This document shows, piece after piece, positions 670 through 18,005 of a DNA stretch of 24,000 nt. Source of the stretch: Bacteroidota bacterium (GTDB lineage Bacteria; Bacteroidota; Bacteroidia; Chitinophagales; Chitinophagaceae); assembly GCA_034408705.1 (NCBI GenBank), contig JAWXCO010000015.1, positions 25,066-49,065 of the forward strand, written 5' to 3'. Made by a program: the position numbers and the translations under genes. Within the stretch, counting starts at the first letter, position 1, and each line of letters begins with the position of its first letter. The notes below the pieces were generated by a model. The model worked only from the letters and a program-made list of their open reading frames with translations, was not told where the DNA came from and did no database searches.

Positions 670-735
670 GGAAATACCGGTACTTCGTCAGGCGCAGCCC
701 GGTAGTGACAAACGTATAATGACAAACGGTAAATA

Positions 736-1763: not shown

Positions 1764-1860
1764 TAGCATTTACAATCCCACTATAGACGAGGCCCTGCTT
1801 TAGTGTATAGAAGCTGTGAAATGGAACAGCTTGCAGTTTTTACGTGAAGGAGTTTTGCCT

Positions 1861-3093: not shown

Positions 3094-3097
3094 ACAG

Positions 3098-3105
3098 CAA
3101 ACGTA
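3098..3105 (-). promoter_or_regulatory. Bacteroidota -7 promoter box (TACGTTTG) for proline dehydrogenase
   Basis: Exact match to TAnnTTTG on the minus strand. Its G lies 5 nt before the A of the ATG at 3093, implying a leaderless or near-leaderless mRNA. Confidence 0.45.
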
Positions 3106-3242
3106 ATTTCCTGTAAAATTAACTGAAAGCCTTTTATTGGAAAGAATGTCTTTTAGCGGTGACCCCAGGCAAACGCAGGCAGTATGTTACGTTTTTGGAA
3201 AATCAATTCCTCTCATCGCCAGAATGGCTGCCCCTCCTTGCC

Positions 3243-3250
3243 TATCTTTG
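3243..3250 (+). promoter_or_regulatory. Bacteroidota -7 promoter box (TATCTTTG) for the acyl-CoA thioesterase
   Basis: Exact TAnnTTTG match. Its G lies 6 nt before the ATG at 3256. It sits inside the long version of the ORF (3184), which argues for the shorter start. Confidence 0.45.
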
Positions 3251-3255
3251 CGCAA

Positions 3256-3780
3256 ATGGCGACTATGAATTCTAAAAAATCAGCGGAAAGCCTGACAATC
3301 ATGACCGAGCTGGTGTTACCCAACGATACCAATGTATTTGGCAACCTGATGGGTGGACGATTAATGTACTGGATGGATATTGCTGCAGCCATAGCAGCGC
3401 AAAAGCATTGTAATGCGCCCGTCGTCACGGCTTCTGTTGATAATATATCTTTTGAAAACCCCATCAAACTCGGGAACGTGGTTCATATTGAAGCCAGGAT
3501 AACCCGGACTTTCAATTCATCGATGGAAGTACACCTGAATGTATGGGGAGAAGACCTGACCCAGCAATATAAATACAAAAGCAATCAGGCTTATTACACA
3601 TTTGTTGCACTCGATCCCAACCGGAAACCGCGGACCGTTCCACAACTCCTGGTAGAAACAGAAGAGGAGAAAAAATTGTTTGATGGTGCCTTACGAAGAA
3701 GGCAGCTGCGGCTGATACTGGGCGGAAAAATGAAACCCGATGATGCGGTGGAATTAAAAGCCCTGTTTTTTAAAGAGTAA
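3256..3780 (+). CDS. acyl-CoA thioesterase, hotdog fold (YciA/ACOT-like)
   Basis: The motif ELVLPNDTNVFGNLMGGRLMYWMDIAAAIAA is typical of YciA/BFIT-type hotdog thioesterases. I moved the start from 3184 to the internal ATG at 3256 because of the -7 box at 3243-3250. The ATG at 3265 is an alternative. Confidence 0.7.
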   Translation: MATMNSKKSAESLTIMTELVLPNDTNVFGNLMGGRLMYWMDIAAAIAAQKHCNAPVVTASVDNISFENPIKLGNVVHIEARITRTFNSSMEVHLNVWGEDLTQQYKYKSNQAYYTFVALDPNRKPRTVPQLLVETEEEKKLFDGALRRRQLRLILGGKMKPDDAVELKALFFKE

Positions 3781-3788
3781 ACGACTGC

Positions 3789-4556
3789 TTATTTATCCGT
3801 GGTTTGCCAATGATGTTTTCCCTTCATCATAAACCTTTTGCTTTGTTCGATGGAGTCCATAAGCTGCGCCATAATGTCTTCGGATGACGCATCATAGTCA
3901 ATAACTAATGGTGCTTTAAAAGTGATGGAGAGAAGGGATCCCTTCTTTTTGAATTTCAATCCTTTCTTGTTAAACGCCCTCCAGAAACCCCTGATCACCA
4001 CCGGTATCACAATAGGTTTCATTTGTTTGATAATCAGTGCCGTACCTTTCCTTCCGGGAGCGAAAGGCTTGGTGGTTCCCTGCGGAAAAGTGATCACCCA
4101 GTTATTTTCCAATGCCCTGGTGATCTTGCGGGTATCGGATGGGTCCAGACCTCTGCGAATTTCTTTTCCTTCAGCCCGCCAGGTACGTCTCACAGTTAAT
4201 CCTCCAGCCAGTAAAAAAAGCCGGCTGATAAAACTTCCTTTCATGGTTTCTTCGGCTGCCACATAATTGACCCTGGTAAACGGATTCAGTAAATAATACG
4301 GAATACCTAACCGGTTCTTCTTCCCCCATTTCACCGCACAAAAAATATGGAGAAAAGTAATGACATCCGCAAAATAGGTTTGATGATTACTCACAAACAA
4401 CACTTTTTTGGGAGGGAGCCCCTTGAAATGCTCCGTACCTTCAATCTTCAGCTTATTGATAATGGCAAGTCCTGGATAGGAAAAAAGGCCTACAAAGAAG
4501 TAGACTATTTTCCTCACCGGGTGAAAATTCTTTAACCTTTCGACAATAGGAGTCAT
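3789..4556 (-). CDS. lysophospholipid (1-acyl-glycerol-3-phosphate type) acyltransferase family protein
   Basis: Acyltransferase block I SNHQTYFAD and block III FPQGT, with an N-terminal hydrophobic anchor. The His-Asp spacing is H-x5-D. Confidence 0.7.
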   Translation of the reverse strand: MTPIVERLKNFHPVRKIVYFFVGLFSYPGLAIINKLKIEGTEHFKGLPPKKVLFVSNHQTYFADVITFLHIFCAVKWGKKNRLGIPYYLLNPFTRVNYVAAEETMKGSFISRLFLLAGGLTVRRTWRAEGKEIRRGLDPSDTRKITRALENNWVITFPQGTTKPFAPGRKGTALIIKQMKPIVIPVVIRGFWRAFNKKGLKFKKKGSLLSITFKAPLVIDYDASSEDIMAQLMDSIEQSKRFMMKGKHHWQTTDK

Positions 4557-4643
4557 GTATTGTATTTAGCCAGCAATGATGGCTCAAATTAATGAATTGT
4601 AATATAATAAACCCCTTTGAAAGTCATCCTTTTTTAATGTAAT

Positions 4644-4669
4644 AAAGGACCCCTGAAAAGGAGCCCTTT
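4644..4669 (-). terminator. possible stem-loop terminator after the T9SS cargo gene
   Basis: Minus-strand RNA aaagggctcc-uuuuca-ggggucCuuu forms a 10-bp stem, 2 pairs of which are G-U on the minus strand only. There is no clear U-tract. Confidence 0.35.
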
Positions 4670-4722
4670 ATTTAACCTACCTTGAAGGTTAAGTGAAAAA
4701 ATCAATATCGTAAAGCCTATTT

Positions 4723-6192
4723 TTATTTAATTCCTCCTACAACTATTTTTTCCACCGTATTTTCTCCTGTTTCAGGTATGATTGTACGCAGCAAATAAAT
4801 TCCCGGTTTCAAATTATCTATCTGGATAGTATTACCATTTATAGCTTTCCATTGCCTGATGATGCGGCCGCTGATGTCGGCGAGCGTTACAGCCCGGTTG
4901 ACTTCTCTGTCTTCAAATACCACATTCACTCTTCCATCCTGACTTGGGTTAGGATATATTAGTGTCCTTCCTTTTTGCCCGTCACCCCGTACAGTACGAA
5001 TATCACTGAGCTTGCTTCTTCCATCAATATCTACCTGCTGAATTCGGTATTGACTTATATCCTTGCTTGCATTCAAATCATTATATGTATACACCTGCAT
5101 TGAACTGCTATTTCCACCGAGTGCCTGTGATCTGATAAAGGCTATCGTCTCCCAGACGTTATTCCCAATATTTCTTTGCAATCCAAAACCACTGTTATTT
5201 GTTTCGGTAGCTGTTTCCCATCTTAATGTCACATTTGACCTGTTGATTCTTTTTGCTGTAAATGAGGTAAAGCTAACTGGCAAAGGGCTACACAATGGTG
5301 AACGTAATAAAATAACTCTCGAAGCACCAGTTCCTGTGCCAGTTGTTTGAGTGAACACCAGGAATATATTCTGGCCAAGATTTGCAACCGGTATCGAACC
5401 CCCGACAGTAGTAGTAGTAGCCGGTCCCGCAACAATGCCATATGTAATCGGACCACTTATAAGCGTATCTGTAACAGGAGTAAAATAGCCATCCCGGTTT
5501 ACATCAGCATATACTCTGTAATAACCATTGAGTGCAATACCGGTGTTATTTGTCACTATTGCAGAATAAGTTGGAGGGTTACCGCAAAAAATAAACCCGG
5601 TCACTGATATGTATCCTGCCGTAGATAAAATACCGCAATTGACACAATGGGCTCTTTGCGCATTAGAGGACTGACTTGACCAAAGGTCAGCTACTATAAC
5701 AACAGGCGTACCACAAGGTACAGACACTGTCGTAGTTACACCTATCAGGGTGATGTTAGCTGAACCATCAGGTAATACTACTCTTGTTATTGAATTTACA
5801 GTAGTTAAAGTAACTGAAGGATCAGGCGGATAAACGGTTAAAATGGTGGGGATAGGACCATTGTTATCTATACCAATATTAAAAAAAGAATTACCAAGAT
5901 CACCCGCGTCAGGAGCAGCGATTGAACCATTAAGTGTGGGATTGCCATTTACACACTGAAAATAATCTGGATACTCACTTTGTAGCCAGGCATGAATAAA
6001 AATATATTTATTCCCCCCATTATTTGCAATATTAAAGGTGGCATCAAAAGTTACTGTGCAGGTGCCAGTACCCGGAACAACATTTCGTATATTCTGAATA
6101 AAAATATCAGAAACCGTACATTGAGCACGTAGCTTTCCGGCGCTAAACGCAACAAGGGCGATAAACAAGAGTGATCGTAAAACTGTTTTCAT
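4723..6192 (-). CDS. secreted protein of unknown function with T9SS type-A C-terminal sorting domain
   Basis: Start moved to the ATG at 6192, giving the signal peptide MKTVLRSLLFIALVAFSAGKLRAQ. The C-terminal ~80 aa (LIYPNPSQDGRVNVVF...LKPGIYLLRTI...VEKIVV) match the Por/T9SS secretion tail. The middle region is Thr/Gly/Val-rich and beta-like. Confidence 0.75.
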   Translation of the reverse strand: MKTVLRSLLFIALVAFSAGKLRAQCTVSDIFIQNIRNVVPGTGTCTVTFDATFNIANNGGNKYIFIHAWLQSEYPDYFQCVNGNPTLNGSIAAPDAGDLGNSFFNIGIDNNGPIPTILTVYPPDPSVTLTTVNSITRVVLPDGSANITLIGVTTTVSVPCGTPVVIVADLWSSQSSNAQRAHCVNCGILSTAGYISVTGFIFCGNPPTYSAIVTNNTGIALNGYYRVYADVNRDGYFTPVTDTLISGPITYGIVAGPATTTTVGGSIPVANLGQNIFLVFTQTTGTGTGASRVILLRSPLCSPLPVSFTSFTAKRINRSNVTLRWETATETNNSGFGLQRNIGNNVWETIAFIRSQALGGNSSSMQVYTYNDLNASKDISQYRIQQVDIDGRSKLSDIRTVRGDGQKGRTLIYPNPSQDGRVNVVFEDREVNRAVTLADISGRIIRQWKAINGNTIQIDNLKPGIYLLRTIIPETGENTVEKIVVGGIK

Positions 6193-6394
6193 AACGTTTA
6201 ATTTTAAAAAGATTAAAAATGCTCTAAAAATTTTTTCCAGACTTTTAGCTGGCACTTTCACAAGAAACGGGATTTGTTTTTTTCGTAGGGGGGATAACAA
6301 GAATTACCGAAAAGCGTACCAGAAAAAGACTCCCTCAAAAAGATTATAACAACGTTAAACAGGTACATAATTCTACAAAACAGGATAATAATGG

Positions 6395-6408
6395 GTAGAT
6401 AGTTCTAC
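6395..6408 (-). repeat. short hairpin with TAGT loop (weaker GATAGT-family member)
   Basis: gtaga-TAGT-tctac contains GATAGTT. It lies in the rpsA / T9SS-gene spacer. Confidence 0.3.
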
Positions 6409-6467
6409 AATCTCCATAAAGAGATTTTCTAAATTCCCCATGAGGGGTTTAAAGCAGGTTGATCGTA

Positions 6468-6501
6468 TAAAAAAAATCCTCTCGTTTGAAACGAGAGGAT
6501 T
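6468..6501 (-). terminator. rho-independent terminator of rpsA
   Basis: Perfect 11-bp stem aatcctctcgt / acgagaggatt (6475-6485 / 6491-6501) with a 5-nt loop. On the minus strand it is followed by a U-tract (the plus-strand A-run ending at 6476). It lies 27 nt after the rpsA stop. Confidence 0.8.
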
Positions 6502-6527
6502 TGATTATTAAACCAAATAAACTGTAC

Positions 6528-8504
6528 TTATTCAGGCTTTGTTTCTTCGGCAGCTGGAGCTGTATCATCGCTGCCACCTTCCATCTTTTTCTTCAATTCA
6601 GCCAGCACACCCAAATCACCCAAAGTAGATTTTTCTACTTTAGTCTGTACGTTCTTAACAGCCTTTCTTGTGCTTTCAGCTTCTGCCCTTACTTCTTTCT
6701 TAGCAGTTTCAGCCTCTTCCACTTTTACCTGCTCCCAAATGCGGGTATGAGATACTACAATGCGTTTTTCATTGCGGTCAAACTCAATCACCATGAACTG
6801 AGCAGTTTCATCTGCAGCAATACTCTTACCATCTTCTTTCGCAAGATGACGGTTAGGAGCAAAGCCTTCCAGGCCATAAGATAACTGAACAGTAGCGCCT
6901 TTATCATCTCTGCGGCTCACCGTACCTTCATGAAGGCTGCCGATGGCAAACGTATCCTGCAGGGAATTCCAGGGATCTTCTTCCAGTTGTTTGTGACCTA
7001 ATTGCAGTTTCCTGTTTTCTTTATCGATACCCAGGATGATCACATCAATGTTAGCAGCCACTTTCGTGTATTCACCGGGGTGATTAAAGCGCTTCAGCCA
7101 GCTCAGGTCGCTGATATGGATCATACCACCGATACCAGCAGCCAGTTCGACAAACACACCATAATTAGTGATATTCTTCACCAGGCCGTTATGCTTGCTG
7201 CCTTCTGCAAATTTTATTTCAATATCATTCCACGGATCAGCAGAAAGCTGCTTGATCGACAAGCTCATCTTGCGGCTTGCTTTATCCAGGGTTACTACTT
7301 TCGCTTCATGCTCATCACCCAGCTTAAAGAATTCTTTGGCGTTGATTGGCGTATTGGCCCACGTAATTTCTGATACATGCACCAGTCCTTCCACACCCGG
7401 CTGAATTTCGAGGAAAGCACCGTAATCTTCAATATTTACCACTTTACCTTTTACGATATTGCCTTCAGCAATATTTTCTGCCAGCACATCCCATGGATGC
7501 GGGGTCAGTTGTTTCAGGCCAAGGCTGATACGTTTCTTCTCATCATCAAAATCAAGTACCACCACATTGATCTTCTGATCCAATTTCAATACTTCAGTCG
7601 GGTGAGAGATACGCCCCCATGAAATATCAGTAATATATAACAGCCCATCTAAGCCACCCAGGTCCATGAACGCACCGAAATCGGTAATATTCTTCACCGT
7701 TCCTTCCAGTACTTGTCCTTTCTCCAGTTTGCTCATGATCTCTGCACGTTGTGCTTCGATATCGCTTTCGATCAGGGCTTTGTGAGATACAACAGCATTC
7801 TTAATAGTTTCGTTGATCTTAACTACTTTAAATTCCATTGTTTTACCTACAAACTGATCGTAATCTGTTACAGGCTTCACATCGATCTGTGAACCTGGTA
7901 AGAATGTTTCCATTCCAAATACGTCAACGATCAAACCACCCTTGGTTTTAGAAGTAACTGTACCGGTGATCACTTCACCTGTTTTGTGTACTTCCACAAT
8001 TCTTTCCCATGCCCTGGTAATACGGGCCTGGCGGCGGCTCAGGTTCAGGTGTCCGTCCCTGTCTTCTTTTTCTACGATCATCACTTCCACTTCATCACCT
8101 ACGGAAAGATTAGGAAGATCACGGAATTCATTGAGGGAAATCAAACCATCACTTTTAAAGCCAATGTTCAGGACTACGTCGGTTTTAGTTAAACCAACTA
8201 CCAATCCTTTCATCATTTGTCCATCGTCTAACTGAACAAATGTGTTATCATACACCGTATGATATTTTTCTTTTTCATCTTTCGTGTAAGACGTCACGTT
8301 ACGTTTGTCAACACTCCAGTCAAAATCATCATGGGGCGTTTCCGGGGCATAAGCAGGTTTCTTTGCAGAAACCTCCTCTATTCCGGCAGAACCGGAATCT
8401 GCGACAGGTGCAGTTGTTGTCGCTGTAGCTGTCTCTTCCGGGAGGGAAGCTGCAGTCTCCTGTTCATCAGCGTTTAGTTGTTTTCTAATTACGTTTTCAA
8501 ACAT
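6528..8504 (-). CDS. rpsA: 30S ribosomal protein S1
   Basis: Six tandem S1/OB repeats with the recurring motifs G.V..(I/V)...G.F(V/L)(D/E)(L/I)..G..G(L/M).H.S(E/D). It has an acidic, low-complexity N-terminus and a Lys/Glu-rich C-terminal tail. Confidence 0.9.
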   Translation of the reverse strand: MFENVIRKQLNADEQETAASLPEETATATTTAPVADSGSAGIEEVSAKKPAYAPETPHDDFDWSVDKRNVTSYTKDEKEKYHTVYDNTFVQLDDGQMMKGLVVGLTKTDVVLNIGFKSDGLISLNEFRDLPNLSVGDEVEVMIVEKEDRDGHLNLSRRQARITRAWERIVEVHKTGEVITGTVTSKTKGGLIVDVFGMETFLPGSQIDVKPVTDYDQFVGKTMEFKVVKINETIKNAVVSHKALIESDIEAQRAEIMSKLEKGQVLEGTVKNITDFGAFMDLGGLDGLLYITDISWGRISHPTEVLKLDQKINVVVLDFDDEKKRISLGLKQLTPHPWDVLAENIAEGNIVKGKVVNIEDYGAFLEIQPGVEGLVHVSEITWANTPINAKEFFKLGDEHEAKVVTLDKASRKMSLSIKQLSADPWNDIEIKFAEGSKHNGLVKNITNYGVFVELAAGIGGMIHISDLSWLKRFNHPGEYTKVAANIDVIILGIDKENRKLQLGHKQLEEDPWNSLQDTFAIGSLHEGTVSRRDDKGATVQLSYGLEGFAPNRHLAKEDGKSIAADETAQFMVIEFDRNEKRIVVSHTRIWEQVKVEEAETAKKEVRAEAESTRKAVKNVQTKVEKSTLGDLGVLAELKKKMEGGSDDTAPAAEETKPE

Positions 8505-8539
8505 TTAAATAGTCCCGAAGGGTTTTATTTTCGGGGCAG

Positions 8540-8547
8540 CAAAGATA
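8540..8547 (-). promoter_or_regulatory. Bacteroidota -7 promoter box (TATCTTTG) for rpsA
   Basis: Exact TAnnTTTG match on the minus strand, about 35 nt upstream of the rpsA ATG. The leader contains the hairpin cccgaa/ttcggg (8514-8535). Confidence 0.45.
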
Positions 8548-8657
8548 AGATAATAAGCCGTAGAGCTGGCTTTGGGCGGGGGATATTTTTGGTTTTGTTT
8601 CCAGCCCCAACTCCTTGATTTAGCTTTCGTTGTGGAGCCTGGGGCAGAGTAGGATAT

Positions 8658-9668
8658 ATGTTTCATCTGGCAATTCTTACTATATTCACCAAAACTAGCT
8701 GTTTGTTTTACCGTTGCCTTAAACTTATTGCCCGGATTGCCATCCGAATTTTTTGCCGGAAGATAATCATCAACCAACCCGGTTTATTAAAAATCAAGGG
8801 GCCGGTGTTACTGGCTTGTAATCATCCTAATTCTTTTCTCGACTCCGTTATTCTTGATACACTATTTGAACAACCAGTATGGTCACTGGCAAGAGGTGAT
8901 GTATTTAAAAATCCTGTTGTTATCCGGATGCTGACTGCTTTAAAAATATTACCCGTCTATCGTACCAGCGAAGGAGTAGAAAACCTCTCAGAAAATTATA
9001 AAACATTTGAAGCCTGCACTACTATTTTCCGGAATAATGGAATAATAACAATTTTCAGTGAAGGCAAATGTATCAACGAGTGGCATCTCCGTCCCTTAAA
9101 AAAAGGGACAGCAAGACTGGCCATCAAAGCATGGGAAGAAAACATTCCATTACAGGTAATATCAGTCGGTATTAATTACAGTTCGTTCAGGAGGTTTGGC
9201 AAAAATATTTTTCTAAATTTTGGTTCGCCTATCATTAAAGAAAATATTAATTTCACTGAAGCAGATGGCATGCGGCATCAGTCTTTTAATAACCAATTAC
9301 AAAAACAACTGGAACAATTGGTTTTTGAAATACCAAAACAGGATAAACAAAAACAAAGAGAATTACTTGAAATAAAGCCTTCTGTACAAAAAAAAATAGT
9401 ATTGGCTATCCCAGCTGCTGTTGGCTATCTTATTCATTTACCACTTTACTTACCGGTTAAAAAATTTACCTGGAAAAAAAATAATCATAATGATCATTAT
9501 GATTCTGTACTGATCGGCATTCTTCTTTTCGGCTATATACTTTACTTAATTGTACTAGTAGCTATTGTATGGATTATAACCGGCGGCTGGTGGGCAATTT
9601 TCCTACTGATACTTTTACCTTTTACTGCCTGGGCATACACACAACTAAAGCCGCAATTGGATAAATAG
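8658..9668 (+). CDS. membrane-anchored glycerolipid/lysophospholipid acyltransferase family protein
   Basis: Block I ACNHPNSFLDS (again H-x5-D), ARGDVFKN, block III FSEGKC. The C-terminal third has 2-3 TM helices (LAIPAAVGYLIHLPLYL, VLIGILLFGYILYLIVLVAIVWIITGGWWAIFLLILLPF). Confidence 0.65.
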   Translation: MFHLAILTIFTKTSCLFYRCLKLIARIAIRIFCRKIIINQPGLLKIKGPVLLACNHPNSFLDSVILDTLFEQPVWSLARGDVFKNPVVIRMLTALKILPVYRTSEGVENLSENYKTFEACTTIFRNNGIITIFSEGKCINEWHLRPLKKGTARLAIKAWEENIPLQVISVGINYSSFRRFGKNIFLNFGSPIIKENINFTEADGMRHQSFNNQLQKQLEQLVFEIPKQDKQKQRELLEIKPSVQKKIVLAIPAAVGYLIHLPLYLPVKKFTWKKNNHNDHYDSVLIGILLFGYILYLIVLVAIVWIITGGWWAIFLLILLPFTAWAYTQLKPQLDK

Positions 9669-9671
9669 CAG

Positions 9672-10424
9672 TTATTCCTTTTTTACCCCGAAAACAATTT
9701 CTCCACTGGCTTCATTTTTATACGTCTTAAAAAGCCGATCCCAGCAACTAAATACAGAGCCATAATTAGTATCAGTTTCCTGCTGTTTATCTGAATGATG
9801 AATACGGTGCATCAGCGGAGAAGAAAATAGTTTTCTGTATATGTGATCAATCCTACGGCTGATAGCAATATTAGAATGATGGATGAGCACAATTATGAAA
9901 AATATCGCTTCGTAAATAAGAATGGGCAAAAAAGAAAATCCCATCAACAAAAAGAAAATGGCTTTACATACAGTAGAAAACAACAGCTCTACCGTATGAA
10001 AACGTAAAGCGGTGGTAGTATTCATTTTATTATCCTTGTGGTGAAACTGGTGAAAACGCCAGAATATTTTTTGGGTGTGGTTGATGCGGTGCCACCAGTA
10101 CATGGCTAAATCCATAAAAAATATTGTAATCGCCAACTTTAACCAAAATGGGAAAATGAATTGCTGCAACAATCCCATTTTATTTTTTTCAATTGCGGAT
10201 AACAACTCAATTATAAGTACAGATGGGAAAAACAGGATGGCGAGGTTTATGACCCCAATTAATAAATTACGTCCTTCATTTTTTCTGTCATTATATTTAC
10301 GAGCTGCCGGAAATAAATGTTCTGCAGTATATTGCAATAATAAAACAGCAAAAAGAATAATTGATTGCCACCGCTTTTCAGGTATGTGTTCCAGGTAACC
10401 CGAAAAAACAAATGCCAGGGTCAT
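9672..10424 (-). CDS. fatty acid hydroxylase / sterol desaturase superfamily membrane di-iron enzyme
   Basis: Histidine boxes WWHRINH (HxxxH), HQFHHKD (HxxHH) and HRIHHSD (HxxHH), plus about 4 TM segments. Its ATG overlaps the upstream stop as ATGA (10421-10424). Confidence 0.8.
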   Translation of the reverse strand: MTLAFVFSGYLEHIPEKRWQSIILFAVLLLQYTAEHLFPAARKYNDRKNEGRNLLIGVINLAILFFPSVLIIELLSAIEKNKMGLLQQFIFPFWLKLAITIFFMDLAMYWWHRINHTQKIFWRFHQFHHKDNKMNTTTALRFHTVELLFSTVCKAIFFLLMGFSFLPILIYEAIFFIIVLIHHSNIAISRRIDHIYRKLFSSPLMHRIHHSDKQQETDTNYGSVFSCWDRLFKTYKNEASGEIVFGVKKE

Positions 10425-11017
10425 GCTAAACTCTTTTTAGTGACCAGCCAATCTTTTTCCGTATCCACATCGGTAAGTACCGGCAACACATAGAAAGATA
10501 ATTGCTGCTTTCTGAAATCAGCGATGGTGTCATTATATACTGTTGGAGTGCTCCATTCTTTATTCTCAAAAATGAAAGAGTACATTTTTTTCATTCCGAG
10601 AAGGTAATAGCCTCCGTCTTTTGCAGGTCCGATCACTACATCATTTTCATTTAAGGATTCAAATGCTTTATTTACAATTGTTGCGTTTAATTCGAAACAA
10701 TCGCTGCCGATAATAACTGCTTTTTCATACCCTTCTTCAAGTAGCGATGTAAATGCATGGTTCATTTTTTTTCCGAGATCTTTATTGATTTGAACAAATT
10801 TGAAGAATCTTTCAGCTGTCCACAGATCATTACTTTCAATTTCCTCATGATAAAAAACAAATTTATCAGCATCAATTGCATTTGCAATTTGAAAAGTGTG
10901 TTGCAGTAATTCTTTATATATATACAAAGCTTTTTCATCCCCAATAGAGGCTGCCAGTCTTGTTTTTACTTTCCGCAGTTCTGGTTTTCGTACAAATATG
11001 ATTAAGCCCTTTTTCAT
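10421..11017 (-). CDS. DUF2064 / TIGR04282-like (arsenosugar-associated) GT-A / nucleotidyltransferase-fold protein
   Basis: The N-terminus GLIIFVRKPELRKVKTRLA is the DUF2064 signature. 198 aa. ATGA start/stop overlaps at both ends (11014-11017 and 10421-10424). Confidence 0.75.
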   Translation of the reverse strand: MKKGLIIFVRKPELRKVKTRLAASIGDEKALYIYKELLQHTFQIANAIDADKFVFYHEEIESNDLWTAERFFKFVQINKDLGKKMNHAFTSLLEEGYEKAVIIGSDCFELNATIVNKAFESLNENDVVIGPAKDGGYYLLGMKKMYSFIFENKEWSTPTVYNDTIADFRKQQLSFYVLPVLTDVDTEKDWLVTKKSLA

Positions 11018-12084
11018 TTACTTCTCAGCTTTTGGCCTTCTGTTTTTTTAGGGTGTACGGTTCTGTTACGGTTTAAGTTTAATTCCATTTGCTTTTGTGG
11101 TGATGAGTTTTCAGGTGCTTTCCCAAACCGGAGCTTAAATGCCCGCAAGCCTGACTTAATCTCATCCCAAAAATTTGAAGGTGGTTTATACCCGTAAGCC
11201 CGGTATTTGCCGGGTTGTAATTTTCCTTTTGCTGCAACAAAGGTTTTAAAATGTTGCACCCAATTCTCAAATTTATTGATATAATCTTTCTCAAAAATCA
11301 CATCTTCACTTTGGTTTTCGCTGTACTTCTTGCCTACCCCGCTATCTGCATATTCCCATAATTTTTCCGGCACTTCTATTCCACCATACCTGCATTGCCA
11401 TACAAGCGGCGCATATGCCTGTCGCATGTCATCAAATGGTTCTGTATCCCCATCAAAATATTTTTTATGCGTTAAAATTTTCGGAATATTATTTTCATCC
11501 ATTTCATCTCCTCCCTGATCACCATAACAAAAGAATCCAGCAGTTCTCCCTTCGAGGTGATTTAACATTAAGCTCTTCCATTGTTCCGATTGCTCTAATG
11601 CCATTGCTTTTTCCGGATCTTTATGTGCAATTAATTTTTCATCAGGATTACCACCGTTCATGCAAACCATTCTGTCAAACATTAGTTTTAAATTACTGGT
11701 GGGCCCGTACCAGTTCACGGGTCCTATAATGGCCCATGCATCAGCCATATCCAACCGGGCATACATATCTGCATCCCACATAAAATCCGGTTCTGCATGG
11801 CTGTTTTTTTTATAGCAATTACACGGCCACACACATAATGCCATTGAAGTAGATACACAGGCATTGCAACTTTGGATGTGTGCCCTTCCATAAGCGTTGC
11901 TTAAATCCTCGTAATCTATTTCCCATTCCTGCGGCAGCATATCAGCCATTTTTAGCATCAGCATCCTTGCTTTGCTGTCAACACCGGGACAATTGTACTG
12001 TTTACGGCCTGAACCGGCGATTATTAATACCCGGAACGGTCTTTGATCTACAGGTAATGCCGCATTTTTATCATTAGGTTTCAT
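11014..12084 (-). CDS. flavodoxin-like fold (NADPH-dependent FMN reductase family) protein with Cys-rich insert
   Basis: N-terminal RVLIIAGSGRKQYNCPG is the flavodoxin-like nucleotide loop. The Cys cluster CNACVSTSMALCVWPCNC resembles the Fe-S motif of iron-sulfur flavoproteins. The basic C-terminal tail is of unknown function. Confidence 0.5.
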   Translation of the reverse strand: MKPNDKNAALPVDQRPFRVLIIAGSGRKQYNCPGVDSKARMLMLKMADMLPQEWEIDYEDLSNAYGRAHIQSCNACVSTSMALCVWPCNCYKKNSHAEPDFMWDADMYARLDMADAWAIIGPVNWYGPTSNLKLMFDRMVCMNGGNPDEKLIAHKDPEKAMALEQSEQWKSLMLNHLEGRTAGFFCYGDQGGDEMDENNIPKILTHKKYFDGDTEPFDDMRQAYAPLVWQCRYGGIEVPEKLWEYADSGVGKKYSENQSEDVIFEKDYINKFENWVQHFKTFVAAKGKLQPGKYRAYGYKPPSNFWDEIKSGLRAFKLRFGKAPENSSPQKQMELNLNRNRTVHPKKTEGQKLRSK

Positions 12085-12187
12085 AGCTAAAAAATTGGTA
12101 TTGTCTTAAAAAATGCAGTTATATATTTTTTCGCTTAAAATACAAAAGTGTTGTGCTCCTGTCCTCAGTATCTCATAACTTCAATTT

Positions 12188-12517
12188 ATGCAAAATATTT
12201 GGGAAAGTATTAAAAAATACTATGTGACTTTAGGGGAAAGCTATCATGTCGACCCACTTATATTTGTGGGAATACATGTTGTTGCAACTCCTTTATTTAT
12301 TGCGGCTGTTGCATGGCTAATAAGTAATTACCGTAAAAATAAATCAATTTTTCTCCCTGCTATAGTTGCCGTCCTCATTTTTAATGCTGCCAACATCTAT
12401 CTCGTCATTATGGGGAGAAATATACCCTGGTGGATTTATACTATACTAGGGGTAACAACAATACTCAGCAGTTATTTTTCTTACAAAAAAGTAAGGAAGA
12501 AAATAAATGCAAAATAA
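12188..12517 (+). CDS. hypothetical small membrane protein (109 aa, about 3 TM)
   Basis: ATG ORF with hydrophobic segments (LIFVGIHVVATPLFIAAVAWLI, IFLPAIVAVLIFNAANIYLVIM, WWIYTILGVTTILSSYF). It is the only plus-strand ORF inside the cluster. No family recognised. Confidence 0.4.
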   Translation: MQNIWESIKKYYVTLGESYHVDPLIFVGIHVVATPLFIAAVAWLISNYRKNKSIFLPAIVAVLIFNAANIYLVIMGRNIPWWIYTILGVTTILSSYFSYKKVRKKINAK

Positions 12518-12633
12518 AGTACATACCTGTTGCCATGAAAAGAGAACGAGGAAAAGTGCAAACCCGGATAAATCGGGACTGGCACAACAGCGGCTACTAC
12601 TTTAAGAAAATATCTTCGGCTACCACACTATTT

Positions 12634-13602
12634 TTAGCAGCATCCCCCTCCATCATAAAACCAGGTGGAACCAGAAATAAAAATATCTTCACTACCTAAT
12701 GCTGCTAATGCACGGGCAGTTTTATCACAAACCGCTAATGGCTGATTGGGTAATAACAAATGGCCTTTATTATCATCAAAACAATCATTACCGCCATAAT
12801 AAATAGCTGTCTTACCTGTAAACACACAAGGGCCGTCAGCAGGCATCGGGTCTTTTATAGCACATACTTCCACACTCTCTATATAAATAAGTTTGTCGGT
12901 ATCATAGTTCTTTGGGTCAAGAATACGATAAGGACGTTTAGCTCTTATCTCCACGGTACCAAAACCAACATCGGTTATCATTTTAATATAATCCCACAAG
13001 GGTAATGAGCCACTGAGACATAATGCCCTTAACCTTTCATCTTCCCGTAATGATTCCGGCATAATAGCTTCGCAAGTCGGGTCACTCATTACTAATCGGC
13101 CACGGGGTTTCAACACCCGGTACATTTCCCCTAATGCCTGTTTCAAGTCTTCCTGTTTAAAAATATTAAACAAACAATTTTGTGCAGCTACATCTATGCT
13201 TGCATCTTCTACCGGCAAATTCAATGCATCACCTTTTTTTACTCCCACAAACTCACTCCTGAACCAGGGATTTAATTTTTCTGCCTCCACAAAATTCTCC
13301 TTACAAGCTGTTATCATTTCATCAACCACATCTACACCAATAACTCCATTTTGTTGCCGGCTGAAATAAGCAAATTGTAACAACTCCATTCCTCCCCCAA
13401 TACCTACATATAAAATTTTCGGATTATTTACAAGGTCCCTTGGATGAACGGTACTGCCGCATCCGTAATTCATTTGCTGCATCTTTACTGGTATGTCTAA
13501 TCCGGGCAATTGCCAAACGGGCGTTGTAGTACAGCAAAGACCTACCTGTGGATTTTCTGCCGCTTCTCTATAAATATCCCTGGTTGTTTCTAAATATGAC
13601 AT
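12634..13602 (-). CDS. arsM: ArsM-like SAM-dependent arsenite methyltransferase (arsenosugar-cluster type)
   Basis: SAM motif I ILYVGIGGGMEL. Cysteines sit in ArsM-like contexts (GLCC near the N-terminus, AQNCLFNIF, RALCLSGSL). The C-terminus is GGGCC. It lies directly downstream of arsS. Confidence 0.75.
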   Translation of the reverse strand: MSYLETTRDIYREAAENPQVGLCCTTTPVWQLPGLDIPVKMQQMNYGCGSTVHPRDLVNNPKILYVGIGGGMELLQFAYFSRQQNGVIGVDVVDEMITACKENFVEAEKLNPWFRSEFVGVKKGDALNLPVEDASIDVAAQNCLFNIFKQEDLKQALGEMYRVLKPRGRLVMSDPTCEAIMPESLREDERLRALCLSGSLPLWDYIKMITDVGFGTVEIRAKRPYRILDPKNYDTDKLIYIESVEVCAIKDPMPADGPCVFTGKTAIYYGGNDCFDDNKGHLLLPNQPLAVCDKTARALAALGSEDIFISGSTWFYDGGGCC

Positions 13603-13625
13603 CCGTTTATTTTTTTTAGTAAAAA

Positions 13626-14687
13626 TTAAGCTACTGCTCCTCCACAGCTACTTCCTGCACCAGCGGTGCAGCCATAGCAATGTTGGTTTATTACAATTTC
13701 GCGGTTGGCTAAAACAGATAAACTGAATTGTGAAATATGCTGAGATGAACAATTTACTTTCATATCCAGCATCTGGTTAAAATCACAATCATAAATAAAT
13801 CCATCCCAACCAATGGAGAGTGTATTCCGACACATTACATTAGCGGCAGCTACGGGATTAAATGCTAAAACCAGTTTCTCCATATACTTTTCATAGTTGC
13901 CGCTTTCTAATAAATATTGCAGAAAGCGACTGATAGGTAAATTGGTAATAGCAAAAAGGTTGTTGAATTCGATATTGAAATCCCTTTTTAATGCCGCTTT
14001 AAAATCTTTTTGTAAAGCATCCTGAGCAGGCGGCAAAAAAGCACCTGCCGGATTATACACCAGGTTTAATAGTAGACCAGTCCCTATTATTCCATAGCCA
14101 ACTCCGTTCAGCAATTGAAGTGCTTTGATAGAATCTTCAAATACACCATCTCCTCTTTGCCTGTCTGTCCGCTCTTTACTATAAAAAGGAAGTGACGACA
14201 CCACTTCAATATTATGCAGCTTAAAAAATTCTGGAAGGTCATTAAATCTTTTATTGGCCAGGATGATAGTAAGATTGCAACGGACAATTATATGCTTGTC
14301 CAGTTTTTTAATTTCCTCCACAAACCATCTGAAATCGGGATTGAGTTCCGGAGCACCACCGGTAAGATCAACTGTGGTAAAAGATTTATTAGCTGACAGC
14401 ACATTCAAACATTGCTGCATCGTTTCTCTGGTCATTATTTCTTTACGGTCCGGTCCTGCATCCACATGGCAATGCTTGCAAACCTGGTTGCACATTTTGC
14501 CTACATTGATTTGAAAAATTTCTAATTGTATTGGCTTTAATGGAAATAAACCAACCGCCTCCAGTTTTTGCTGAAAGGGCACTAACCTGAAAGCATCATC
14601 ATGATTACGGCCATGCTCCAGGATTTCAATCTGTTCATTTGAATCGGATAACAAGTGATGCTGAGATTTCAGAGACTTCATTTTCAA
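13626..14687 (-). CDS. arsS: radical SAM / Cys-rich domain protein ArsS (TIGR04167-like), Cys form
   Basis: CX3CX2C radical-SAM motif (CNQVCKHC). The characteristic C-terminal motif is CYGCTAGAGSSCGG. The Cys that is Sec in some family members is encoded here by TGT. Confidence 0.85.
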   Translation of the reverse strand: MKMKSLKSQHHLLSDSNEQIEILEHGRNHDDAFRLVPFQQKLEAVGLFPLKPIQLEIFQINVGKMCNQVCKHCHVDAGPDRKEIMTRETMQQCLNVLSANKSFTTVDLTGGAPELNPDFRWFVEEIKKLDKHIIVRCNLTIILANKRFNDLPEFFKLHNIEVVSSLPFYSKERTDRQRGDGVFEDSIKALQLLNGVGYGIIGTGLLLNLVYNPAGAFLPPAQDALQKDFKAALKRDFNIEFNNLFAITNLPISRFLQYLLESGNYEKYMEKLVLAFNPVAAANVMCRNTLSIGWDGFIYDCDFNQMLDMKVNCSSQHISQFSLSVLANREIVINQHCYGCTAGAGSSCGGAVA

Positions 14688-14716: not shown

Positions 14717-15052
14717 TTACATGGCCACTTCTTTTACCTTATTCATCATCTGCACACCATGCACTAATGCTGCGCCACCCTTGATGGCAGCAGCTACATG
14801 AATAGCTTCCATCATTTGTCCTTCACTCCATCCTTTTTCAAATGCGTCGCTGCTGTAAGCATCGATACAATAAGGGCATTGTACAGCATGAGCTACGGCT
14901 AAAGCAATCAATGATTTTTCTTTAGCCGTTAAGTTACCTTCTCCAAACACTTCCCCATACCAGGCAAAAAATTTATCGGCCATTGGCTTTTGAAACTCGC
15001 CGACATTTCCAAATTTTCCAAGGTCCTCTGCGTTGTAATAATGATTAGCCAT
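14717..15052 (-). CDS. AhpD/carboxymuconolactone-decarboxylase-like 'peroxidase-like' protein (arsenosugar-associated type)
   Basis: 111 aa with the AhpD-type CxxC motif (VQCPYCIDAY). Only 3 nt separate its ATG from the upstream stop. Confidence 0.75.
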   Translation of the reverse strand: MANHYYNAEDLGKFGNVGEFQKPMADKFFAWYGEVFGEGNLTAKEKSLIALAVAHAVQCPYCIDAYSSDAFEKGWSEGQMMEAIHVAAAIKGGAALVHGVQMMNKVKEVAM

Positions 15053-15055: not shown

Positions 15056-16327
15056 TTATGATTTATAGTTTTGAAGATATAGTGTCCAGTCGTACTCTTT
15101 AAATTGTATTGCCGGCTTTTTATCGGCCGGGACAATTGAAAGTTCCCGAAGTAAAGATAGCATCCCTTTCTTACCTCCAAAATCACGGCGAAACCAGCTC
15201 ATTAATGTGGGCAGCTCTGCCCTATTAGCCACTTCATCATATTTCACCTCACTTGTTAAATAAACTTTTGTTGCGAGTGCCAATTGTTCATTTATACTTT
15301 CCGCCTTATAAAAAGCGATCGGTGGGCAACTTTTGGCTCCGCAGTTCAGGGCAAAATGTAACCGGTAATCCAATTGATTAACCCGCAATTGTTTCTCTGT
15401 TTTACCGGGAAATGGTTTTTTCAAATGCCCCAAACTCCATTTTATACTTGAGCGGCGCAGAATACCATGTTCTATATCATCAAGACTAAATTTTTCTCCC
15501 GCAATCTCTATTTGTTTACTTCCGAAGAATTGACTTCTTTTCTTATACTGCTCAGGATTTTTCTTTAATGATACCTGTGTATATGCATTATAAAGATTTA
15601 TCCAGAAGGCCTTTTTCTCCTCATCTGTTTTTATAGTTGATCGCAGATCAGTCATGGTAATTTGCCGGAGTTGCTGGACAAAACCTGATACATCTTCGTC
15701 TGTTTTGGCAGCATACATAAACTGCTGCGATAGTTGGACTAACCTGTTGGCAGACGGTTCCATGATTTCCTTCTCTTTATTTGTTGAAGATAAAGGTTGG
15801 TTAACAACCTTATTAGTCATACCGATGACCACTGAACCGGCTTCTTCTTCCTTCAACCACTTATCAATATTTTCAGCAGTCATTTCCTCCTGTGAAGGTA
15901 TTGCAATAACTTTGCCACTCTTATTAACAATCACGGTATAAGGATAGGAAGGTGGCTGAAAATGTTTAGTGAATAACTCTTTTTCATCCACTACAAGTGG
16001 TAGTGTAAAGTCTTGTTGTCTGCTGATAAAACTAGTCAGCTTTGCTTCTGGTTCATTTGATACAAGCAGTATTCTCACACGATCGTTGTATTTTTCCTGG
16101 AGGGCTGATAATTTTGGCAAAGCCTTTACACAAGGCACGCACCAGGTACCAAAGAAATCAACTACCAGTAACCGGTCTTTTAACTGCGAAAACGTTGAGG
16201 AAGCAGAAGAACTATTAAGTATTTTATGAACAGGGAAGTCGCCAGTCATATCGTTTAGCCCATATCCAGACTGGCCACGTAATGTGACATTCGCCATGAT
16301 GCATATGAAAAGAAAGCTCCATTTCAT
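15056..16327 (-). CDS. exported TlpA-like thioredoxin fused to a DUF547 domain
   Basis: Start moved to the ATG at 16327, giving the signal-like N-terminus MKWSFLFICIMANVTLRGQ. The thioredoxin motif is FFGTWCVPC. The C-terminal half has DUF547 hallmarks (FWINLYNAY, LDDIEHGILR, HFALNCGAKSCPPI). Confidence 0.7.
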   Translation of the reverse strand: MKWSFLFICIMANVTLRGQSGYGLNDMTGDFPVHKILNSSSASSTFSQLKDRLLVVDFFGTWCVPCVKALPKLSALQEKYNDRVRILLVSNEPEAKLTSFISRQQDFTLPLVVDEKELFTKHFQPPSYPYTVIVNKSGKVIAIPSQEEMTAENIDKWLKEEEAGSVVIGMTNKVVNQPLSSTNKEKEIMEPSANRLVQLSQQFMYAAKTDEDVSGFVQQLRQITMTDLRSTIKTDEEKKAFWINLYNAYTQVSLKKNPEQYKKRSQFFGSKQIEIAGEKFSLDDIEHGILRRSSIKWSLGHLKKPFPGKTEKQLRVNQLDYRLHFALNCGAKSCPPIAFYKAESINEQLALATKVYLTSEVKYDEVANRAELPTLMSWFRRDFGGKKGMLSLLRELSIVPADKKPAIQFKEYDWTLYLQNYKS

Positions 16328-16375
16328 GAAAGACAGGTGTAGTTGGTTAGACGAATGACCTACTATAAACGTAAA

Positions 16376-16413: not shown

Positions 16414-17238
16414 ATGATATTAACACCTGAAAGTATAGTCGAAACCGCTTCTTTTCTGCGGACATCCGGCTTTAATCAACCTGTGGTGGGTATTGTTATG
16501 GGCACCGGTCTCGGTGCAATGGCAGATAAAATTGAGAACCCGATTTCGATCCCTTATCCGGCCATTCCGAACTTCCCTGAAGCCACGGTAGAGTTTCATA
16601 AAGGCAACCTGTTGTATGGCTCCGTTGGTGACGTGAAGGTCATTGCGATGCAGGGTCGTTTTCATTATTATGAGGGCTATAGTATGCAGCAAATTACTTT
16701 TCCGATACGCGTAATGAAAGCATTAGGTATAAACTATCTTTTTCTAAGCAATGCAGCTGGTGGGCTGAACCCAAGCTACAAAAAAGGCGACCTCGTTTTA
16801 TTGGAAGACCATATCAATTTCCTGCCGGATAATCCGCTTCGGGGCGTAAGTGACCCGGCGCTGGGTCAGCGTTTTGTTGATATGAGCCGTCCCTATGATA
16901 TGCGCTTAATAAAACTGTTAGAAGATACCGCGTTATTACAAAACAAGATGGTAAAAAAAGGGATCTATGCAGCCGTGATGGGCCCTAATCTGGAGACCCG
17001 GGCCGAATACCGCTGGCTCCGTTCCACCGGCGCGGACCTGGTAGGCATGAGTACAGTCCCAGAAGTAATAGTGGCCAACCAGGCTGGGATAAAATGTGCA
17101 GCCATCAGTGTTGTCACGGATGAATGTGACCCCGATCATTTACAACCCGTAAATATTGCTGAGATCATTGAAGTGGCGGGCAGGTCGGATAAAATACTAA
17201 GTGATCTGTTGGTAGCCTGTATAAAAGAATTGAAATAA
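16414..17238 (+). CDS. purine nucleoside phosphorylase, trimeric PNP/MTAP class (PunA-like) with Asp at the base-specificity position
   Basis: Motifs GIVMGTGLG, QGRFHYYEG, LSNAAGGLN, GPNLETRAE and GADLVGMSTVPEVIVA. The ISVVTDE motif puts Asp236 (GAT, 17119-17121) where human PNP has Asn243. Confidence 0.85.
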   Translation: MILTPESIVETASFLRTSGFNQPVVGIVMGTGLGAMADKIENPISIPYPAIPNFPEATVEFHKGNLLYGSVGDVKVIAMQGRFHYYEGYSMQQITFPIRVMKALGINYLFLSNAAGGLNPSYKKGDLVLLEDHINFLPDNPLRGVSDPALGQRFVDMSRPYDMRLIKLLEDTALLQNKMVKKGIYAAVMGPNLETRAEYRWLRSTGADLVGMSTVPEVIVANQAGIKCAAISVVTDECDPDHLQPVNIAEIIEVAGRSDKILSDLLVACIKELK

Positions 17239-17283
17239 GTCTCCATACAATAAAACTACTTACATGCAGGGGATCGGGTAGTT

Positions 17284-17976
17284 TTAGCGGTAGTTCAGCA
17301 TTTTTTTATACATATGCACCATTTCCACCTGGGAAGCCCCATTTTTATACATACTGACGATCTTCCTGTTGGTCATTTGTACTTTCCACCAGCTGTTTGT
17401 GTCATATTTACGGGCTGAAACAAGGGTCGGCTTATTAAAGATTTTGTACCGCTCTTTTTCTCTTGCCCTTGAAACAAATTCATACTCTTCCATGATCAGC
17501 ATATCTGTTTTGAAACCACCTGCGCTCATATACAAATCCCGGGTAATAAAAAGTGTCTGGTCTCCACCCATACAGATAAACCAGTCGAACCGGGTAAACC
17601 ACGCATTGATCTTTAAATACCATTTACGGGAATTAAATTGTGTACGATACCGGCCGATAGCAAACCCATCTTCTATTGCCTTGCTAATATCGGCAACAAA
17701 AGAGGCAGGAGGGAATGTATCTGCATGGACAAAATATAAAACATCTCCTTTGGCCAATGATGCCGCATAGTGCATTTGTGCTGCCCTGCCTTTTTGAGGT
17801 GAGAGAATCCCTGCTGCTCCTGCATTGTTAGCTATCAGCAACGTATCATCCGTACTGCCAGCATCCACCACAATGATTTCTGCGACCGCCTCCGTTTTAT
17901 ATTGCAGAAGATAACGGATAAGTTCTCCGATATGCTCAGCTTCATTATAAACCGGTATGATAATACTTATCTGCAT
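17284..17976 (-). CDS. family-2 glycosyltransferase, TIGR04283-like (arsenosugar-associated type)
   Basis: IIIPVYNE, VVDAGSTDDT, GRAAQM, LYFVHADTFPP, GGDQTLFITR and MEEYEF. The ~230 aa size is typical of the small GT2 that co-occurs with DUF2064 proteins. Confidence 0.7.
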   Translation of the reverse strand: MQISIIIPVYNEAEHIGELIRYLLQYKTEAVAEIIVVDAGSTDDTLLIANNAGAAGILSPQKGRAAQMHYAASLAKGDVLYFVHADTFPPASFVADISKAIEDGFAIGRYRTQFNSRKWYLKINAWFTRFDWFICMGGDQTLFITRDLYMSAGGFKTDMLIMEEYEFVSRAREKERYKIFNKPTLVSARKYDTNSWWKVQMTNRKIVSMYKNGASQVEMVHMYKKMLNYR

Positions 17977-18005
17977 AGCGATATGATGATAAAGCAGGGA
18001 AACAA

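Follow-up and report, generated by a model that had tools for sequence, protein, structure and literature searches.

A Cys-rich flavoprotein and a membrane di-iron oxygenase as a possible tailoring module in an arsenosugar gene cluster of a Chitinophagaceae bacterium

The stretch of DNA analysed here (in the following, the window) comprises 24,000 nucleotides of contig JAWXCO010000015.1, positions 25,066 to 49,065 (GenBank assembly GCA_034408705.1), from a bacterium of the family Chitinophagaceae; its nearest relatives are Ferruginibacter and Chitinophagaceae metagenome-assembled genomes (MAGs). The subject is a trio of minus-strand genes, which encode a Cys-rich flavodoxin-like protein of 356 amino acids (aa), designated FLV, a DUF2064/TIGR04282 protein of 198 aa, and a membrane protein of the fatty acid hydroxylase/sterol desaturase superfamily of 250 aa, designated FAH (Table 1). 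The TGA stop codon of the first gene and the ATG start codon of the second share the bases ATGA at 11017-11014 (read on the reverse strand), and a second stop/start overlap of the same type, at 10424-10421, joins the DUF2064 gene to FAH. Four-base overlaps are the most frequent type of overlap in bacterial operons; those of the trio are not unusual in themselves, and they indicate a single transcription unit. Since a gene for a membrane protein of 109 aa is located on the opposite strand between the trio and arsM, this unit would be the trio's own. The three genes can be considered real, because they have clear family matches and homologues elsewhere with 84–92% identity, and because their order recurs: FLV-DUF2064-FAH was found again in L007 and L084 (L numbers denote the loci of the comparative sets described below) and in one Logan contig. 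In L084 and the Logan contig the first ATGA overlap is retained and the second junction is a 2-nt gap.

Upstream of the trio and on the same strand follow the genes for ArsM and the radical-SAM protein ArsS, which are spaced by 23 nt, an AhpD-like protein (TIGR04169) and a thioredoxin-DUF547 protein; beyond the latter are a divergent gene for a purine nucleoside phosphorylase (PNP) and a gene for a family-2 glycosyltransferase (GT2) of the type TIGR04283. Five NCBIfam models for arsenosugar biosynthesis (NF038099, TIGR04167, TIGR04169, TIGR04282, TIGR04283) passed their cut-offs in this one neighbourhood, and the cluster is therefore an arsenosugar cluster. The outer flanks contain housekeeping genes (rpsA, secY and ribosomal protein genes). 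An Rfam scan across the window gave no match, and a scan for sigma-70 promoters and terminators between 9400 and 12800, with a consensus which is unsuited to Bacteroidota, gave sites no more numerous than in shuffled sequence.

FLV scored 27.9 bits against the Pfam model FMN_red (PF03358; cut-off 24), which is marginal. No NCBIfam model was matched at E ≤ 0.01, a single-sequence search of the PDB gave no relative, and the family profile reached the PDB with E of about 1e-3 at best, confined to the FMN-loop motif. The AlphaFold2 model (predicted local distance difference test, pLDDT, 82) had SsuE, ArsH, azoreductases, NQO1/2, KefF and WrbA as top Foldseek matches in the PDB, with E values of about 1e-5, target template modelling (TM) scores of 0.5–0.7 and identities to the solved structures of 9–14%; modelling thus confirmed a predicted flavodoxin-like NAD(P)H:FMN-reductase fold. 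The Cys string CNACVSTSMALCVWPCNC in FLV is a signature of the family: C73, C76, C84, C88 and C90 were kept in 82–83 of 84 homologues. Further residues conserved in the same 84 sequences were C32, C141, C186 and C231, which brings the cysteines to nine in all, H176 and H206, and the FMN-loop residues G24, S25, R27, P122, W125, K133, D137 and R138. The family is unusually conserved and large (2146 clusters at an identity of 90%, 629 at 50%); at least 585 species-level genomes, distributed over about ten phyla, carry relatives with 54–86% identity.

FAH scored 102.8 bits against FA_hydroxylase (PF04116; cut-off 31). Its translation contains the His boxes HRINH, HQFHH and HRIHH, which fit the patterns HX3-4H, HX2-3HH and HX2-3HH, and histidines 112, 116, 125, 128, 129, 206, 209 and 210 were kept in 32–33 of 33 sequences. 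A single-sequence search of the PDB gave no match. Two types of FAH could be distinguished, type A with about 250 aa, to which the protein of the window belongs, and type B with about 281 aa, which is the usual FAH after FLV; the types are 25–34% identical. Convergent on FAH in the window is a gene for a PlsC-like acyltransferase, a homologue of which (35–64% identity) adjoins or is near type A FAH in L005, L007, L084, L085 and L089; this companion of type A FAH is kept down to 49% FAH identity.

The DUF2064 protein matched TIGR04282 over its full length with 205.6 bits (cut-off 134) and Pfam DUF2064 with 106.1 bits (cut-off 25.8); its score against Pfam CofC, 32.3 bits, was also above the cut-off of 22. 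Its sole close structure in the PDB is 3CGX (E = 6e-30), a structural-genomics entry with no assigned function, and the family profile weakly reached FbiD (6BWG) and CofC (2I5E). KTRL, GxD and DGGYYL are conserved motifs of the family. From these likenesses, the protein is probably a MobA/CofC-type nucleotidyltransferase which activates a sugar. DUF2064 is a core member of arsenosugar clusters, as 41 of the 80 ArsS loci contain it and as, in L038 from a Bdellovibrionota MAG, it is fused with GT2 in one protein of 481 aa (TIGR04282 with TIGR04283). In at least nine loci, the gene for a family-less protein of 90–136 aa with the motif YxCxLCxLTYG is placed between those for DUF2064 and GT2; the window does not contain it.

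Thus, the initial annotation of the three genes, i.e., a flavodoxin-like FMN-reductase fold for the first, a nucleotidyltransferase-like DUF2064/TIGR04282 protein for the second and a di-iron fatty acid hydroxylase/sterol desaturase for the third, is borne out: for FLV the FMN_red score and the AlphaFold2/Foldseek results agree, for the second protein both models were above cut-off and CofC/FbiD were nearest, and FAH has its PF04116 score and all eight histidines. The two ATGA overlaps were found in the open reading frames (ORFs) and in the sequence, as stated there, and the location of the trio within an arsM/arsS arsenosugar cluster is upheld by the ArsM and ArsS models, which were both above cut-off nearby.

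For comparison, three sets of related loci, anchored on FLV, FAH and ArsS, were assembled (about 170 loci in all). The FLV-anchored set comprised 83 loci, 35 of which have at least 8 kb of flank on both sides (full-flank loci). Within 5 kb of FLV were found FAH (19 loci), ArsS (19), GT2 (18), the TIGR04169/CMD gene (16), DUF2064 (15), a Pyr_redox_2 flavoprotein (14) and PNP (11); there was no competing conserved context among the 83 loci. An ars core gene was present in 15 of the 35 full-flank loci. Where FAH and FLV occurred together, they were directly adjacent in 18 of 24 loci, from Bacteroidota, Acidobacteriota, Bdellovibrionota and Cyanobacteria, and FLV and FAH overlap by 8 nt in L003, L092 and L093; ArsS, for comparison, adjoined FLV for 4 of 23 ArsS matches near FLV. 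L093 contains an operon of ten genes on one strand, in the order CMD, ArsS, ArsM, PNP, DUF2064, GT2, Pyr_redox_2, HAD, FLV and FAH. L065 has an FLV-FAH pair with no ars core gene within 10 kb, and in L001 the only such neighbour is a TIGR04283-like GT2, which adjoins FLV. Some of the loci come from cultivable bacteria, namely Parapedobacter indicus RK1 (L026), Pedobacter sp. SYSU D00535 (L019), Adhaeribacter radiodurans (L001) and Rufibacter hautae (L002), the last of which has FLV with no FAH in its vicinity.

All FAH contexts examined were in clusters containing TIGR04283, for type A the window, L084, L085, L087 and L089, and for type B L091 to L093. Just upstream of intact FAH genes in L089 and L091, remnants of FLV of 26–35 aa were detected, which indicates a recent loss of FLV, as judged from the sequence, with ArsS and FAH retained. 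L085 has DUF2064, FAH, the acyltransferase and GT2; ArsS, ArsM and FLV are absent within 20 kb. The membrane protein of 109 aa gave nothing above threshold with Pfam and NCBIfam; a homologue directly adjoins FLV in 11 of 13 Bacteroidota loci, usually in divergent orientation, others are present in L084, L087, L089 and L093, and the one in L093 is a weak tblastn match in the uncalled gap between Pyr_redox_2 and HAD. This protein may be part of the FLV/FAH module.

The ArsS-anchored set consisted of 80 metagenome loci, with ArsS sequences 58–74% identical to that of the window. The genes found near ArsS were CMD (72 loci, in which it adjoins ArsS), DUF2064 (41), PNP (30), ArsM (28), GT2 (22), FAH (4) and FLV (3). 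FLV and FAH were both present in 3 loci, FLV alone in none, FAH alone in 1 and neither in 76 (Fisher p = 4.9e-5); in the loci with ample flanks, FLV occurred in 1 of 32. The suggestion that the whole trio accompanies arsS therefore stands in part, for DUF2064, whose link is already in the NCBIfam name, and does not extend to FLV (3/80) and FAH (4/80).

Di-iron His-box oxygenases consume two electrons per turnover, which are delivered singly, and a flavoprotein with a Cys-bound metal centre is a classic device for this purpose. Because of the adjacency and the co-occurrence of the two genes, together with the two-electron need of a di-iron oxygenase, FLV would best be read as the reductase of FAH, and the pair as an optional, O2-dependent tailoring module. 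FLV would draw electrons from NAD(P)H via FMN and a Cys-ligated metal centre, and pass them singly to the di-iron centre of FAH; FAH could then use O2 to introduce a hydroxyl group or a double bond into a hydrophobic portion, probably lipid, of the product or of the acceptor. The step would be optional and outside the core route, since only some 5% of the ArsS loci in the sample contain FAH. The best explanation for the trio would then be that it represents the distal operon of an extended arsenosugar cluster, with one core enzyme and an optional tailoring module of two genes; we consider this explanation to be about evenly poised between right and wrong.

A product linked to lipid is plausible by analogy, as the acyltransferase is conserved and enzymes of the FAH superfamily have lipid substrates; the neighbouring PlsC-like acyltransferase would suit a glycerolipid. 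In the widest form of this idea, which appears doubtful at present, aerobic soil bacteria (Bacteroidota, Acidobacteriota, Myxococcota and others) would use FLV, FAH and the PlsC-like acyltransferase to convert the arsenoriboside to an arsenolipid of the membrane.

Several observations weigh against FLV and FAH as a dedicated pair. Neither FAH nor ars genes were nearby in 19 of the 35 full-flank FLV loci, and the same holds for all 11 loci from Gemmatimonadota and all 11 from Proteobacteria; either FLV has a role beyond the module, or its partners are encoded elsewhere. FAH outlives the loss of FLV in the two loci with remnants and occurs without FLV in L096 and L085, so FLV is not strictly required and another reductase may substitute; the Pyr_redox_2 protein, which recurs in the vicinity of both genes and was found close to FLV in 14 of the 83 loci, is a candidate. 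In the window itself, the gene after FLV is DUF2064 and not FAH, and its type A FAH is only distantly related (see above) to the FAH usually paired with FLV. The sample of ArsS loci is biased to relatives of the ArsS of the window and covers about 10 kb per side. Finally, the identities, conservation and co-occurrence of the genes are observations, from which the reactions of FLV, DUF2064, FAH, PNP and GT2 are deduced; likewise, the binding of FMN and Fe-S by FLV is deduced from motifs and fold.

Of the other readings of FLV, the one which survives best, improbable as it appears, assigns it an action on arsenic in the manner of ArsH: it would reduce dimethylarsenate to the trivalent substrate of ArsS, or take part in redox reactions of arsenosugar intermediates, with its cysteines binding arsenic. 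The ArsH structures 2Q62 and 7PLE were among the top fold matches, conserved cysteines are many, As=O would be chemically analogous to a sulfoxide, and outside ars clusters FLV has neighbours for redox repair (Pyr_redox_2, MsrA/MsrB, DUF547). However, the ArsH model was unmatched and SsuE and azoreductases fit the fold equally well; the Cys motif is retained in lineages without nearby ars genes, which suggests a cofactor site, and the tight pairing with FAH would be left unexplained.

Less probable again is a general module of FLV and FAH for membrane lipids or oxidative stress, which would be unrelated to arsenic and, in certain lineages, would happen to be located next to the arsenosugar genes. 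In favour of this reading, more than half of the FLV loci contain FLV by itself, about 95% of the ArsS loci in the sample have neither FLV nor FAH, and the pair in L065 is without ars core genes. The FAH-anchored contexts speak against such a module, as all those examined were in TIGR04283 clusters, usually with ArsS, and so do the association across at least five phyla with differing gene orders and the translational coupling of the window trio via the core enzyme DUF2064.

The least probable reading is that of the initial annotation, i.e., FLV as a dedicated donor of electrons to the [4Fe-4S] cluster of ArsS, a radical-SAM enzyme: 22 of the 83 FLV-anchored loci have ArsS at a distance of up to 10 kb from FLV, which for a rare gene is much more than expected by chance, the fold of FLV is flavodoxin-like, radical-SAM enzymes in general require at least one priming electron and a local reductant might help aerobic hosts, but FLV occurred in hardly any ArsS locus and rarely adjoined ArsS (4/23, versus 18/24 for FAH), ArsS clusters outlast the deletion of FLV (L089, L091), FLV is frequent in genomes and loci without ars context (19 of the 35 full-flank loci had no ars gene within at least 8 kb), and the ArsS reaction is reported to be redox-neutral, with no external reductant needed for turnover once primed (PMC13598754). 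A stoichiometric supply of ArsS by FLV is thus unsupported, as the reaction is reportedly redox-neutral after priming and most ArsS clusters are without FLV.

The reading of FLV and FAH as an optional module presupposes a core route, for which the cluster suggests the following steps. Dimethylarsenite would be made by ArsM and adenosylated by ArsS to DDMAA, a 5'-substituted adenosine. PNP or MTAP could cleave DDMAA with phosphate to adenine and α-5-deoxy-5-dimethylarsinoyl-ribose-1-phosphate; the DUF2064 nucleotidyltransferase would convert this arsenoribose-1-phosphate to a nucleoside diphosphate (NDP)-arsenoribose, from which the inverting GT2 (TIGR04283) would move the arsenoribose to an acceptor, yielding a β-riboside. 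Phosphorolysis yields α-1-phosphates, GT2 enzymes invert, and natural arsenosugars are β-ribosides. An α-NDP-sugar and an inverting GT2 would lead to a β-riboside, and the stereochemistry is therefore consistent with the core route. DUF2064 is the obvious candidate for the activation, because an analogue of α-ribose-1-phosphate would suit a nucleotidyltransferase and because of the fusion to GT2 in L038. The next-best models for the GT2 of the window were GpgS and polyprenyl-phosphate glycosyltransferases; the HAD phosphatase in L093 would fit a phosphorylated acceptor, by analogy to the GpgS pathway.

An adenine-type phosphorylase is a core component of the clusters; Bacteroidota have an Asp-type PNP for this, and other phyla have a true MTAP. 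All 10 cluster PNPs have Asp ("TDECDP") at the base-recognition site which corresponds to N243 of human PNP. Guanosine/inosine-specific PNPs have Asn at this site, as in the human enzyme, and MTAP has Asp. Of the nearest solved PNP structures, 4M1E and 4LNA also have Asp and 4NS1 has Asn. A true MTAP (TIGR01694, 255–311 bits) replaces PNP in clusters L041, L047 and L051 from Planctomycetota/Myxococcota. The presence of two unrelated adenine-type phosphorylases in the same type of cluster points to phosphorolysis of DDMAA. Housekeeping synteny as an explanation for the PNP gene was rejected, in view of its presence in 30 of the 80 ArsS loci, its varying position in the operons and the replacement by MTAP.

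Table 1. Features of the window and of related loci, with their coordinates; scores are in bits, followed by the model cut-off where available.
Locus	Feature	Position	Strand	Remarks
Window	4HBT thioesterase	3184-3780	+	
Window	Second acyltransferase	3789-4556	-	
Window	PlsC-like acyltransferase	8658-9668	+	C-terminal membrane region; Pfam Acyltransferase 60.8; convergent on FAH
Window	FAH, membrane di-iron His-box oxygenase	9672-10424	-	Type A; PF04116
Window	DUF2064/TIGR04282 protein	10421-11017	-	Probable MobA/CofC-type nucleotidyltransferase; TIGR04282, DUF2064
Window	FLV, Cys-rich, flavodoxin-like/NAD(P)H:FMN-reductase fold	11014-12084	-	Uncharacterised subfamily
Window	Small membrane protein, 109 aa	12188-12517	+	Three-helix; divergent from FLV; family-less
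Window	ArsM, arsenosugar-type arsenite methyltransferase	12634-13602	-	NF038099 561 (400)
Window	ArsS, radical-SAM	13626-14687	-	TIGR04167 440.8 (300); Pfam DUF3641
Window	AhpD/CMD-like arsenosugar biosynthesis-associated peroxidase-like protein	14717-15052	-	TIGR04169 174.6 (120)
Window	Thioredoxin-fold + DUF547 protein	15056-16330	-	DUF547 117; AhpC-TSA/Thioredoxin_8; recurs in clusters
Window	PNP, trimeric type	16414-17238	+	MTAP-like Asp (SVVTDECDPD); NF006054 340
Window	GT2	17284-17976	-	TIGR04283 214 (182)
L041	MTAP	1889-3148		TIGR01694
L047	MTAP	69-1091		TIGR01694
L051	MTAP	11919-12941		TIGR01694
L038	TIGR04282-TIGR04283 fusion	7707-9149	+	
L089	FLV remnant	9863-9940		Upstream of intact FAH
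L091	FLV remnant	7895-7999		Upstream of intact FAH
L002	YxCxLCxLTYG protein	8878-9243		
L092	YxCxLCxLTYG protein	5858-6244		
L091	YxCxLCxLTYG protein	6839-7111		
L084	Glyoxalase/dioxygenase-superfamily gene	1023-2081		
L085	Glyoxalase/dioxygenase-superfamily gene	12020-13075		
L087	Glyoxalase/dioxygenase-superfamily gene	11498-12535		
L089	Glyoxalase/dioxygenase-superfamily gene	11457-12512		
L009	PHO4-type phosphate transporter	7486-8610		
L084	PHO4-type phosphate transporter	5818-6903		
L087	PHO4-type phosphate transporter	17121-18236		
L011	Disulfide oxidoreductase	6413-7864		
L093	Disulfide oxidoreductase	4485-5918		
L085/L086	Variant cluster	1-14000		

The ORF listed for the thioredoxin-DUF547 protein reaches 16465 and overlaps the start of PNP by 52 nt; judging from the sequence, translation probably begins near 16330, at the Met which precedes the signal-like peptide MKWSFLFICIMANV. 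The genes for the thioesterase and the second acyltransferase, at a distance of a few kb from the cluster, show conserved synteny in L084.

Other genes were noted in the related loci. A gene of the glyoxalase/dioxygenase superfamily, with about 345–352 aa, adjoins GT2 in related clusters, and the window lacks it; the same superfamily includes the C-As lyase ArsI. A PHO4-type phosphate transporter is encoded inside several clusters, beside ArsM or ArsS, and this placement suggests a tie to arsenate/phosphate uptake. Near FLV, a class-I pyridine-nucleotide disulfide oxidoreductase (kin of MerA and lipoamide dehydrogenase, about 460–480 aa) was found in 14 loci, some of them without ars genes; MsrA/MsrB, DUF547 and VTT/DedA genes were also recurrent there. 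L085/L086 contain a variant cluster with the thioredoxin-DUF547 gene, a second, divergent DUF2064 gene, a TonB receptor, an ABC importer, a different radical-SAM gene, DUF2064, FAH, the acyltransferase, a glyoxalase-like gene and GT2; ArsS, ArsM, CMD, PNP and FLV were not found within 20 kb of it.

The organic arsenic species of seafood and algae are mainly arsenosugars and arsenolipids. In the accessible literature, published reactions are those of ArsM and ArsS, and the steps after DDMAA are described without enzymes; up to 2026, this applies to both the removal of adenine and the formation of the glycoside. No accessible paper assigns a role to TIGR04282/DUF2064 or links arsenosugars with a sterol desaturase or a flavodoxin. 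The kind of cluster is already known, as is the link of DUF2064, which is encoded in NCBIfam names (TIGR04282 is called "arsenosugar biosynthesis glycosyltransferase"). The FLV-FAH module, the core adenine-type phosphorylase, the fusion of DUF2064 with GT2 and the stepwise scheme are absent from model names and accessible papers.

The cluster supplies testable candidates for each remaining core step, i.e., the adenine-type phosphorylase, the DUF2064 nucleotidyltransferase and GT2. An optional O2-dependent module of FLV and FAH could account for a diversification of products towards lipids, and it would provide a working context for the widespread, uncharacterised FLV family (at least 585 species-level genomes). 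Soil bacteria, and not only cyanobacteria and algae, may commonly carry out arsenosugar-type chemistry. If the arsenolipid proposal were true, FLV would be the first Fe-S flavoprotein to be described as a dedicated reductase of an enzyme of the fatty acid hydroxylase superfamily, and together with PNP/MTAP, DUF2064 and GT2, the genetic route which leads from arsenite to an arsenosugar lipid would for the first time be complete.

With respect to known systems, the NCBIfam arsenosugar set includes the middle gene of the trio, as TIGR04282, whereas FLV and FAH are outside any model labelled for arsenosugars. The closest characterised relatives of the DUF2064 protein are the nucleotidyltransferases CofC and FbiD, with which it shares the N-terminal motif K-x-K-T/S-R-L and the motif G-x-D; the likeness is at the level of the superfamily. 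CofC/FbiD are 2-phospho-L-lactate guanylyltransferases, whereas the substrate proposed for the DUF2064 protein is a sugar-1-phosphate. Membership in that group was rejected, since the CofC equivalog TIGR03552 gave 37.1 bits versus a cut-off of 105.

FLV has its fold and the FMN loop P-x-x-W/Y...K...D-R in common with ArsH, SsuE and the azoreductases, which lack its Cys-rich insertion and its C-terminal extension of about 150 residues. A place in the ArsH family was rejected, as no NCBIfam ArsH match was obtained at E ≤ 0.01 and the likeness is at fold level only. A further parallel is the iron-sulfur flavoprotein Isf of methanogens, whose fold is flavodoxin-like and in which, as in FLV, a compact Cys motif follows the second strand and precedes the next helix. 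The motif of Isf is CX2CX2CX5-7C, binding [4Fe-4S]; that of FLV is CX2CX7CX3CXC, and FLV was thus not accepted as a classical Isf. The best PDB match to an Isf-type query sequence was 7D38 (310 aa, E = 7.7e-10), which has the same layout as FLV, with a run CxxCxxC at the corresponding place in the aligned stretch. Neither 7D38 nor any Isf was reached by the FLV profile in the PDB at E ≤ 10.

For both types of FAH, the best NCBIfam match was the ornithine-lipid hydroxylase OlsE (51–90 bits, cut-off 475). The FAH of the window, with 89.8 bits for NF052566, was not accepted as OlsE, and the ornithine-lipid genes OlsB/OlsA were not identified in the cluster. To our knowledge, no flavodoxin-like Fe-S flavoprotein has been described as a partner of the FAH superfamily. 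The closest functional models would appear to be the fatty acid hydroxylases and desaturases with cytochrome b5, and AlkB with rubredoxin and its reductase, which are His-box di-iron membrane enzymes supplied with one electron at a time from NAD(P)H by way of a small redox protein; the candidate donor of FAH would be encoded by an adjacent, overlapping gene.

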